DNA of 64,000 nucleotides from Escherichia coli (GTDB lineage Bacteria; Pseudomonadota; Gammaproteobacteria; Enterobacterales; Enterobacteriaceae): NCBI RefSeq assembly GCF_030384885.1, contig NZ_CP128613.1; one strand, given 5' to 3'. Under the pieces are notes generated by a model that did no database searches, was not told the origin of the DNA, and worked only from the letters and a program-made list of their open reading frames with translations. Shown here in pieces: positions 29,093-30,001 of this stretch. Position 1 is the first letter of the stretch. Every line of letters starts with the position of its first letter. A program made the position numbers and the translations under genes.

Positions 29093-30001
29093 TTAGTTAA
29101 TCAGCTTATCAAGCTCAGCAAGAGGTAAATTTGCCATCTCTGCAACGTCTTCCCGAGACATTCCTTTACTCAGAAGACGCAGGGCGAATTCTTGCCTTTC
29201 CTCCTGTCTTCCCAGCTGAATCCCCTTCTCAATCCCCTTCTCAATTCCCTTCTCTTCAAACCACTGCGCCAACGTCATCATAGACTCCCCTCCCGTTTCC
29301 CTGTCTCTCACCACACCATAAAACAAATCCGCTTGTTCAGTATGACCGCGTTGCAGCATATAGTTTTGCATGGCAACTAACTGACTTCCGCTAGTGTACC
29401 CTTCGTCAATCAGCGTGACCAGTTGCTCCAGCAATAACATTAAGTCGCGCTGGCGAATATGTTTTTGCAGCAGTTCGAGAATCGCAATCCGCCGATGTTG
29501 CATGATTTCGTCATCCGGTGTGATAGTGATATCCACCAGCGGGAAAGGACTGTTATAGACGCGTCGCGCCAGCTCCGGCGAGTAAAACATATCAAACCAG
29601 CACATTGAGAGTGGATAAGGCGTGGCCTCGCCCTGATAAAACAAAATCGGCACCACCAGCGGCAGCTTATCGTGGTCAGCCTCCAGATGCCGGTGCATGG
29701 CGGCAATAGAATAACGCATCATACGAAACGCCATTTTTTTGTCCGGCTTGCTTTGGTGTTCAATCACAACATGTAGATAGCCCGTATTACCCTGCATTTG
29801 CACGGAATAGAGCACGTCAGTGCTGTGCCCTTTCAGGCTTTCTTCAATAAAACTCCCCGACTCAAGATGCAGCGTGTCGAGATCACACAGTTCGCGTAGC
29901 TCCGCTGGCAAATGGATATCCAGAAAGTCGCGAGCCGTTTCCGCGTGCATTAAAAATTGTTTAAACACCGCATCATGCGGTGTGGTACTCGGTGCATCCA
30001 T
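29093..30001 (-). CDS. rpnC: Recombination-promoting nuclease RpnC (YhgA-like, PDDEXK family)
   Basis: 302 aa matching the K-12 YadD/RpnC position and length; carries an (EKGI)x3 tandem repeat near the C-terminus. Confidence 0.8.
   Translation of the reverse strand: MDAPSTTPHDAVFKQFLMHAETARDFLDIHLPAELRELCDLDTLHLESGSFIEESLKGHSTDVLYSVQMQGNTGYLHVVIEHQSKPDKKMAFRMMRYSIAAMHRHLEADHDKLPLVVPILFYQGEATPYPLSMCWFDMFYSPELARRVYNSPFPLVDITITPDDEIMQHRRIAILELLQKHIRQRDLMLLLEQLVTLIDEGYTSGSQLVAMQNYMLQRGHTEQADLFYGVVRDRETGGESMMTLAQWFEEKGIEKGIEKGIQLGRQEERQEFALRLLSKGMSREDVAEMANLPLAELDKLIN

Follow-up and report, generated by a model that had tools for sequence, protein, structure and literature searches.

Copy number of a four-amino-acid repeat in Escherichia coli rpnC as the probable determinant of matching between the RpnC toxin and its nested antitoxin

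Our combined findings suggest that a 36-bp tandem array in rpnC is the hypervariable four-amino-acid repeat of this gene, that the number of its units sets the matching between the nuclease toxin RpnC_L and the small antitoxin RpnC_S, and that units are gained or lost singly. We put the probability of this reading at about 0.88. The array lies in a 64-kb stretch of Escherichia coli DNA, referred to here as the window. The anatomy of the locus, the conservation of the internal start, the variation in 12-nt steps and the single-unit changes come from the present analysis, and the expression of RpnC_S, the toxicity and the dependence of matching on repeat number come from the literature on K-12. 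The repeat itself has already been published, down to this unit in RpnC (Zhong et al., PNAS 2023; PMC10400941), which the preliminary description of this DNA had not noticed. New here are a rare natural three-copy allele, a population estimate over complete genomes, and near-isogenic pairs of alleles that are one unit apart.

As described by Zhong et al., an rpn gene contains a second gene: its full-length product, RpnL, is a DNA endonuclease with toxic activity, and RpnS, made from an internal translation start, blocks RpnL (PMC10400941). Start-site ribosome profiling and immunoblot revealed each of the five RpnS proteins of K-12, RpnC_S among them, with RpnC_S seen as an SPA-tagged protein, and an internal rpnC transcript was reported as well. 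A hypervariable four-amino-acid repeat is common to RpnL and RpnS and varies in all E. coli RpnS. It begins 8-20 residues past the initiating methionine of RpnS, inside helix 1, which is the dimer interface in the crystal structure of RpnA_S. In their Fig. 4D, RpnC_S carrying one additional KGIE no longer counteracts the K-12 RpnC_LS and the converse combination fails too, and repression is restored when KGIE is added to both RpnC partners (PMC10400941).

In the window, the array occupies positions 29219-29254 and consists of three tandem 12-nt units. TRF reported a period of 12, 3.0 copies, 95% matches, a score of 65 and no indels, with AATCCCCTTCTC as the consensus. Read directly, the units of the + strand are, in order, AATCCCCTTCTC, AATCCCCTTCTC and AATTCCCTTCTC, and those of the coding (minus) strand are GAGAAGGGAATT, GAGAAGGGGATT and GAGAAGGGGATT. 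The array is in frame with the minus-strand ORF at 29093-30001, and its product, EKGIEKGIEKGI (EKGI EKGI EKGI), spans residues 250-261 of RpnC, equivalent to residues 10-21 of RpnC_S, ending 41 residues short of the RpnC C-terminus. The preliminary description had proposed three tandem 12-bp copies at this place, encoding three EKGI units in an Rpn-family nuclease; the former was confirmed by TRF and by the direct read, and the latter by translation, Pfam, TIGR01784 and the RefSeq locus. The rpnC array is among 12 TRF rows with a score of at least 40 in the whole window, and it exceeds chance expectation: an array with a period of 12, three copies and at most two mismatches was found in none of 20 triplet-shuffled versions of the window. 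Two + strand ORFs that run over the repeat (29131-29283 and 29192-29380) were dismissed as mechanical by-products of the antisense frame.

The ORF that carries the array (rpnC, also known as yadD) codes for 302 aa, with RpnC_L, the nuclease toxin, as its full-length product. Two family models score above their curated thresholds and place it among the Rpn/YhgA-like nucleases: PF04754 (YhgA-like putative transposase, Rpn family) matches residues 7-207 with an E-value of 2.1e-87 and 292 bits, and the Rpn family model TIGR01784 reaches 289.9 bits, its cutoff being 52.1. Converted from residues to coordinates, the PF04754 match puts the N-terminal YhgA-like, or PD-(D/E)XK, nuclease domain at 29381-29983 on the minus strand. 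RefSeq annotates as rpnC a sequence of E. coli 2013C-4282 that is 100% identical to the window gene and is flanked by panC and panD. The gene order in the window, panC-rpnC-panD with yadE beyond, matches that of the K-12 rpnC/yadD (b0132) locus in NC_000913, and the K-12 and window genes share 93.4% nucleotide identity across 1.18 kb. On the grounds of position and identity, we assign the ORF as the RpnC orthologue (b0132).

This gene is nearly universal in the species. A 1,182-nt query, comprising rpnC and the spacer up to panD, matched 5,424 of 5,426 complete E. coli genomes, 5,417 of them over at least 80% of the query. The protein cluster of K-12 RpnC has 4,509 members, with lengths that include 294, 300 and 302 aa; the exact sequences of the window RpnC and of the RpnC of Nissle 1917 were absent from the protein collection searched. 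In some strains rpnC is inactive. It is annotated as frameshifted in the fetched locus L003 (NZ_AP045796.1), whose repeat region is in frame, so that the frameshift must lie elsewhere in the gene, and the match in H79 (NZ_OZ547117.1) has an IS1 element inside it.

The sequence of the window gene has the features of a nested antitoxin gene. Two consecutive in-frame ATG codons (M241 and M242; 29276-29281, minus strand), the presumed start of RpnC_S, are invariant in all alleles aligned. Upstream of them, at 29285-29294 on the minus strand, lies a Shine-Dalgarno-like GGGAGGGGAG, which is kept in 13 of 13 aligned alleles, two of them having it as GGGAGGGAAG; the coding-strand string GGGAGGGGAG-TCT-ATGATG (29294-29276) is conserved in all aligned alleles. 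By analogy with the RBS and iTIS mutants of rpnA (PMC10400941), GGGAGGGGAG probably serves in ribosome binding. Translation from M241 yields a 62-aa C-terminal product (rpnC_S, 29093-29281, minus strand; MMTLAQWFE...DKLIN) that reads MMTLAQWFE-(EKGI)3-QLGRQEERQEF-ALRLLSKGMSREDVAEMANLPLAELDKLIN, with the concept of such a gene and the evidence for it in K-12 provided by PMC10400941. The first EKGI is at residue 250, nine residues past M241, and falls within the published range of 8-20. With an in-frame internal start, a putative ribosome-binding site and a small C-terminal product, the window rpnC is, as judged from its sequence, a nested RpnC_L/RpnC_S toxin-antitoxin gene from which RpnC_S is predicted to be expressed. 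A promoter scan yielded one weak sigma-70-like site within rpnC (29745-29718, minus strand), which we did not take as support for the internal transcript reported in PMC10400941.

The C-terminal part of RpnC_S (29132-29206, minus strand) appears weakly helix-turn-helix-like, based on sub-threshold Pfam matches to HTH_7, HTH_3 and HTH_23; a relation of RpnS to HTH motifs by HHpred has been reported (PMC10400941). The Pfam family of stand-alone RpnS, DUF4351 (PF14261), gave no match to RpnC_S or to a downstream RpnC_Ss even at E<=10, and sub-threshold HTH families were all that this search returned for either protein. An AlphaFold2 monomer of RpnC_S, built on an 11-sequence alignment, is of moderate confidence (mean pLDDT 70.6; 56-65 in the repeat) and has five short helices, the first of them broken at the glycines of the repeat. 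Foldseek of this model against the PDB returned no match at E<=0.001, the top entries being generic HTH domains without significance. No solved RpnS was matched by phmmer with full-length RpnC, nor by phmmer with RpnC_S or an hmmsearch profile of RpnC_S variants, which retrieved a designed repeat protein and weak HTH proteins only.

We estimated the distribution of repeat numbers in E. coli from the 5,426 complete genomes, with frequencies taken from evenly spaced ranked rows. When a 191-nt query with the repeat at its centre was used, full-length matches measured 155, 167, 179, 191, 203, 215 and 227 nt, the steps always being multiples of 12, and a second, K-12-based query of 179 nt recovered the same length classes. 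We then measured the hypervariable segment, from after WFE through QEF, in the resolved rows of both queries pooled (n=111). The K-12 form, with two EKGI units and a segment of 19 aa, accounted for 73 of the 111 rows; segments of 11 and 15 aa were found in 4 and 8 rows, the 23-aa class of the window in 2, and segments of 27, 31 and 35 aa in 11, 4 and 9 rows, respectively. Still longer segments of 39 and 47 aa, that is, 4 and 6 units beyond the window, occur among the matches listed. The two-copy K-12 form makes up about 60-66% of sampled genomes, including 36 of 59 rows sampled with the 1,182-nt query. The three-copy allele of the window is rare: 4 records reach at least 99% identity to it across the 191 nt.

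Direct reading of 18 fetched loci gave the EKGI counts themselves. No EKGI was present in L003, L006, L007, L010 and L011, one in UTI89, two in K-12, L002 and L009, three in the window, L001, L014 and L018, four in L004 and L013, six in Nissle 1917, seven in ATCC 25922, and nine, as degenerate units, in MS20657 (L015). Every intact allele is in frame. The comparison of copy number across E. coli genomes that had been proposed for this repeat thus bore out the expected variation between strains, with 12-nt length classes and 0, 1, 2, 3, 4, 6, 7 or 9 EKGI units, and an identical number everywhere was clearly not what we saw. Such variation (12-nt classes among 5,426 genomes and 0-9 EKGI) agrees with the description of the RpnL/RpnS system by Zhong et al. 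The longest array, that of MS20657 (NZ_CP082077.1), encodes EKGI EKGM VKGM EKGI ERGI EKGM VKGI EIGI EKGI within a 326-aa protein, and its sequence suggests a duplicated four-unit (48-nt) block.

A second variable array, RQE(V/E), which the preliminary description had overlooked, directly follows the EKGI units. It has a degenerate two-unit form in the window, QLG-RQEE-RQEF (29186-29218, minus strand), and ranges from 2 to 8 12-nt units among sequenced alleles, with three in L018, five in L010, six in L011, seven in L006 and eight in L007. In the sampled loci, the alleles in which RQEV is expanded lack EKGI and begin with ERG, and those with an expanded EKGI array retain only 2-3 RQE units. As the RQEV-expanded alleles are devoid of EKGI, the hypervariable helix appears to be built from two alternative arrays.

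Between rpnC and panC, many strains have an extra small gene of 65-71 aa, the downstream antitoxin copy rpnC_Ss of Zhong et al., which the window does not have. It is found in L004, L006, L007, L010 and L011 (at about 1170-1385), with pseudogene remnants in L003, L016 and L017. It has 12-nt variation of its own, FQKG being present once vs twice in L007, and in the sampled loci its array is never equal to that of the resident rpnC. The same spacer in the window extends from the stop of panC (28872) to that of rpnC (29093) and contains a 125-bp insertion (28877-29001), which K-12 and the majority of other alleles lack here. The spacer is 220 bp long in the window, a length common to L001, L013, L014 and L018, vs 73-81 bp without the insertion. 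The ERIC1R primer and, in reverse complement, the ERIC2 primer are matched exactly within the insertion, which by its sequence looks like an ERIC/IRU repeat element. The spacer also has a GC-rich hairpin with a T-rich tract behind it (29006-29028), which resembles a terminator on the + strand; the hairpin sequence is kept in all alleles of the spacer alignment and could terminate transcription in both directions, from panC as well as from the convergent rpnC.

Two other repeats lie in the window. One has a 303-bp period and 2.7 copies (50162-50976) within the 630-aa minus-strand ORF at 49105-50997, which is aceF, the pyruvate dehydrogenase E2 component (NF008814, 1099.9 bits); it corresponds to the three lipoyl domains of that protein and is ordinary. 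The other has a 96-bp period, about 2.7 copies and 76% matches (46917-47286) and lies in a 616-aa + strand ORF (45553-47403) that had no NCBIfam match and, by position, may be yacH.

To learn how the rpnC array changes, we compared near-isogenic pairs of alleles over 3.2-3.6 kb. ATCC 25922 (7 units) and Nissle 1917 (6 units) differ by one 12-nt indel, with 0 mismatches in 3,630 columns. Likewise, L010 and L011 differ by one 12-nt indel with 0 mismatches in 3,203 columns, and the window (3 units) differs from L013 (4 units) by one 12-nt indel and 12 mismatches. In both EKGI pairs the added unit, GAGAAGGGAATT, is identical to the one beside it. These pairs imply that the array changes faster than point substitutions build up in the roughly 3 kb of flanking sequence, and that each change adds or removes a single unit. 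The most likely source of such changes is slippage during replication, or else unequal exchange between near-identical neighbouring units, with slippage presumably the simplest mechanism. Slippage had also been put forward in the preliminary description; the one-unit differences on identical backgrounds fit it well, and the process itself we infer rather than demonstrate. For these 'dodecamer repeats', Zhong et al. leave the mechanism of expansion open, noting that RpnL might take part (PMC10400941).

Tandem repeats are miscounted in some assemblies, and differences in copy number could in principle be artefacts of sequencing or assembly. Yet the arrays, at 12-108 nt, are far below read length, the window allele recurs in other genomes, and the unit sequences carry structured point variation. 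Furthermore, the number found in each of Nissle 1917, CFT073 and ATCC 25922 recurs from one assembly of the strain to the next. The haplotype group that includes these three strains has a uniform 95.8% identity to the query (1987 bits), with ten of the matches listed being 1,218 nt long and eleven 1,230 nt, and independent assemblies concur within each strain (three for Nissle, two for CFT073 and two for ATCC 25922). This agreement indicates that the length differences are not assembly noise and that they are stable on laboratory time scales, and we give the artefact explanation practically no weight. A greater, though still very small, chance attaches to the idea that the variation arises mainly by recombination, with whole C-terminal modules swapped between alleles or with rpnC_Ss, rather than by slippage. 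The EKGI-type and RQEV-type arrays are indeed distinct modules, and the array of L015 resembles a duplication of a four-unit block. In L012 (NZ_CP023960.1; rpnC at 1448-2338), the C-terminus, EKGRQAVRQEVSQEF...ATLSLTEVDKLINSN, is of the downstream small-gene type, unlike the usual RpnC_S, so that this gene looks like a fusion of the N-terminal part of rpnC with rpnC_Ss; fusions of the rpnC/rpnC_Ss type have been described (PMC10400941). Against such swapping as the main process stand the three pairs that are exactly one unit apart and otherwise the same, or almost so, across 3.2-3.6 kb. Recombination probably contributes too, alongside unit-by-unit change.

The array might also be a neutral in-frame microsatellite in a tolerant linker, driven by slippage and without functional effect, which is essentially how the preliminary description had read it. 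A 12-nt unit preserves the frame at any copy number, so that in-frame variation could arise without selection; the repeat region is glycine-rich and modelled with low confidence; and the prevalence of the two-copy form, at about 60-66%, is what clonal inheritance predicts. We nonetheless consider neutrality improbable, given that one added KGIE abolishes cross-neutralisation in K-12 RpnC, that the same type of four-amino-acid variation is described in Rpn proteins of distant phyla (PMC10400941), and that the second array of the same helix varies as well. Phase variation, in which repeat number would switch rpnC on and off as at a contingency locus, draws on the presence of a tandem repeat within a defence-related gene and on frameshifted rpnC in strains such as L003. 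Such a switch operates through shifts of frame or promoter spacing, but a 12-nt unit cannot shift the frame, the intact alleles are all in frame and the L003 frameshift is outside the repeat, so we regard phase variation as ruled out for practical purposes.

According to the favoured reading, in which repeat number sets toxin-antitoxin matching, rpnC would encode two proteins in one frame, the RpnC_L nuclease toxin and RpnC_S of about 62 aa, the latter starting at M241/M242 behind what appears to be a strong Shine-Dalgarno sequence. The EKGI units would lie in the first helix of the shared C-terminal domain, the presumed surface by which RpnS pairs with RpnL, and their number would set the length of this helix and thereby which RpnC_S neutralises which RpnC_L. 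Since RpnC_L and RpnC_S are read from the same DNA, the gain or loss of one unit would alter both partners together and may create a new self-compatible pair that does not cross-react with other variants. Because the array lies inside RpnC_S and its number sets toxin-antitoxin matching (PMC10400941), it is likely to be more than a neutral length polymorphism. Zhong et al. suggest phage-driven selection, and in the experiments of that paper cited here antiphage activity is demonstrated for the plasmid homologue RpnP2 only and not for RpnC (PMC10400941); the rpnC repeat may be under such selection.

More speculatively, (EKGI)n and (RQE-V/E)n could together constitute a combinatorial pairing code, changes in which would allow escape from a foreign or paralogous RpnS or from a putative phage-encoded mimic. 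We hold this extension to be doubtful, and part of it may already be contained in the figures of PMC10400941. A tblastn search with RpnC_S, a short query, against 50,697 phage records returned nothing at E<=1e-3 and so lends no support, at the level of sequence similarity, to a phage-encoded RpnC_S mimic.

If the main reading is correct, the repeat is a natural specificity dial of a toxin-antitoxin, defence-type nuclease, with which one change in the DNA alters both the toxin and its nested antitoxin. The one-unit pairs offer naturally occurring alleles on which mutation rate and cross-compatibility could be measured.

The closest known system is K-12 RpnC (YadD, b0132), which has the same locus, internal Shine-Dalgarno sequence, ATGATG, repeat unit and repeat position as the window gene. 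It differs in having two EKGI units in 300 aa vs three in 302 aa, QQG vs QLG and RQEV-SQEF vs RQEE-RQEF after the array, and the end ...EIDKVINLI vs ...ELDKLIN. RpnA_S, crystallised as a dimer of three-helix bundles, and the other RpnS are, like the predicted RpnC_S of the window, nested antitoxins that share the C-terminal domain of their toxin, and they have the repeat insertion in helix 1 at the same distance of 8-20 residues past the methionine (PMC10400941). The similarity of RpnA_S to the window RpnC_S is below what sequence searches detect, and the predicted model of the latter is without a single long helix. Among unrelated proteins, the TAEL repeat in HsdS of EcoR124I and EcoR124II is likewise a four-amino-acid helical repeat whose number alters spacing and with it specificity (PMC10400941), but there the specificity concerns the spacing of the DNA target (N6 vs N7) and not protein-protein pairing. 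Finally, simple-sequence contingency loci resemble the rpnC array in being tandem repeats that mutate faster than their flanks, whereas the rpnC unit is a multiple of three and its changes do not bring about on/off frameshifting.
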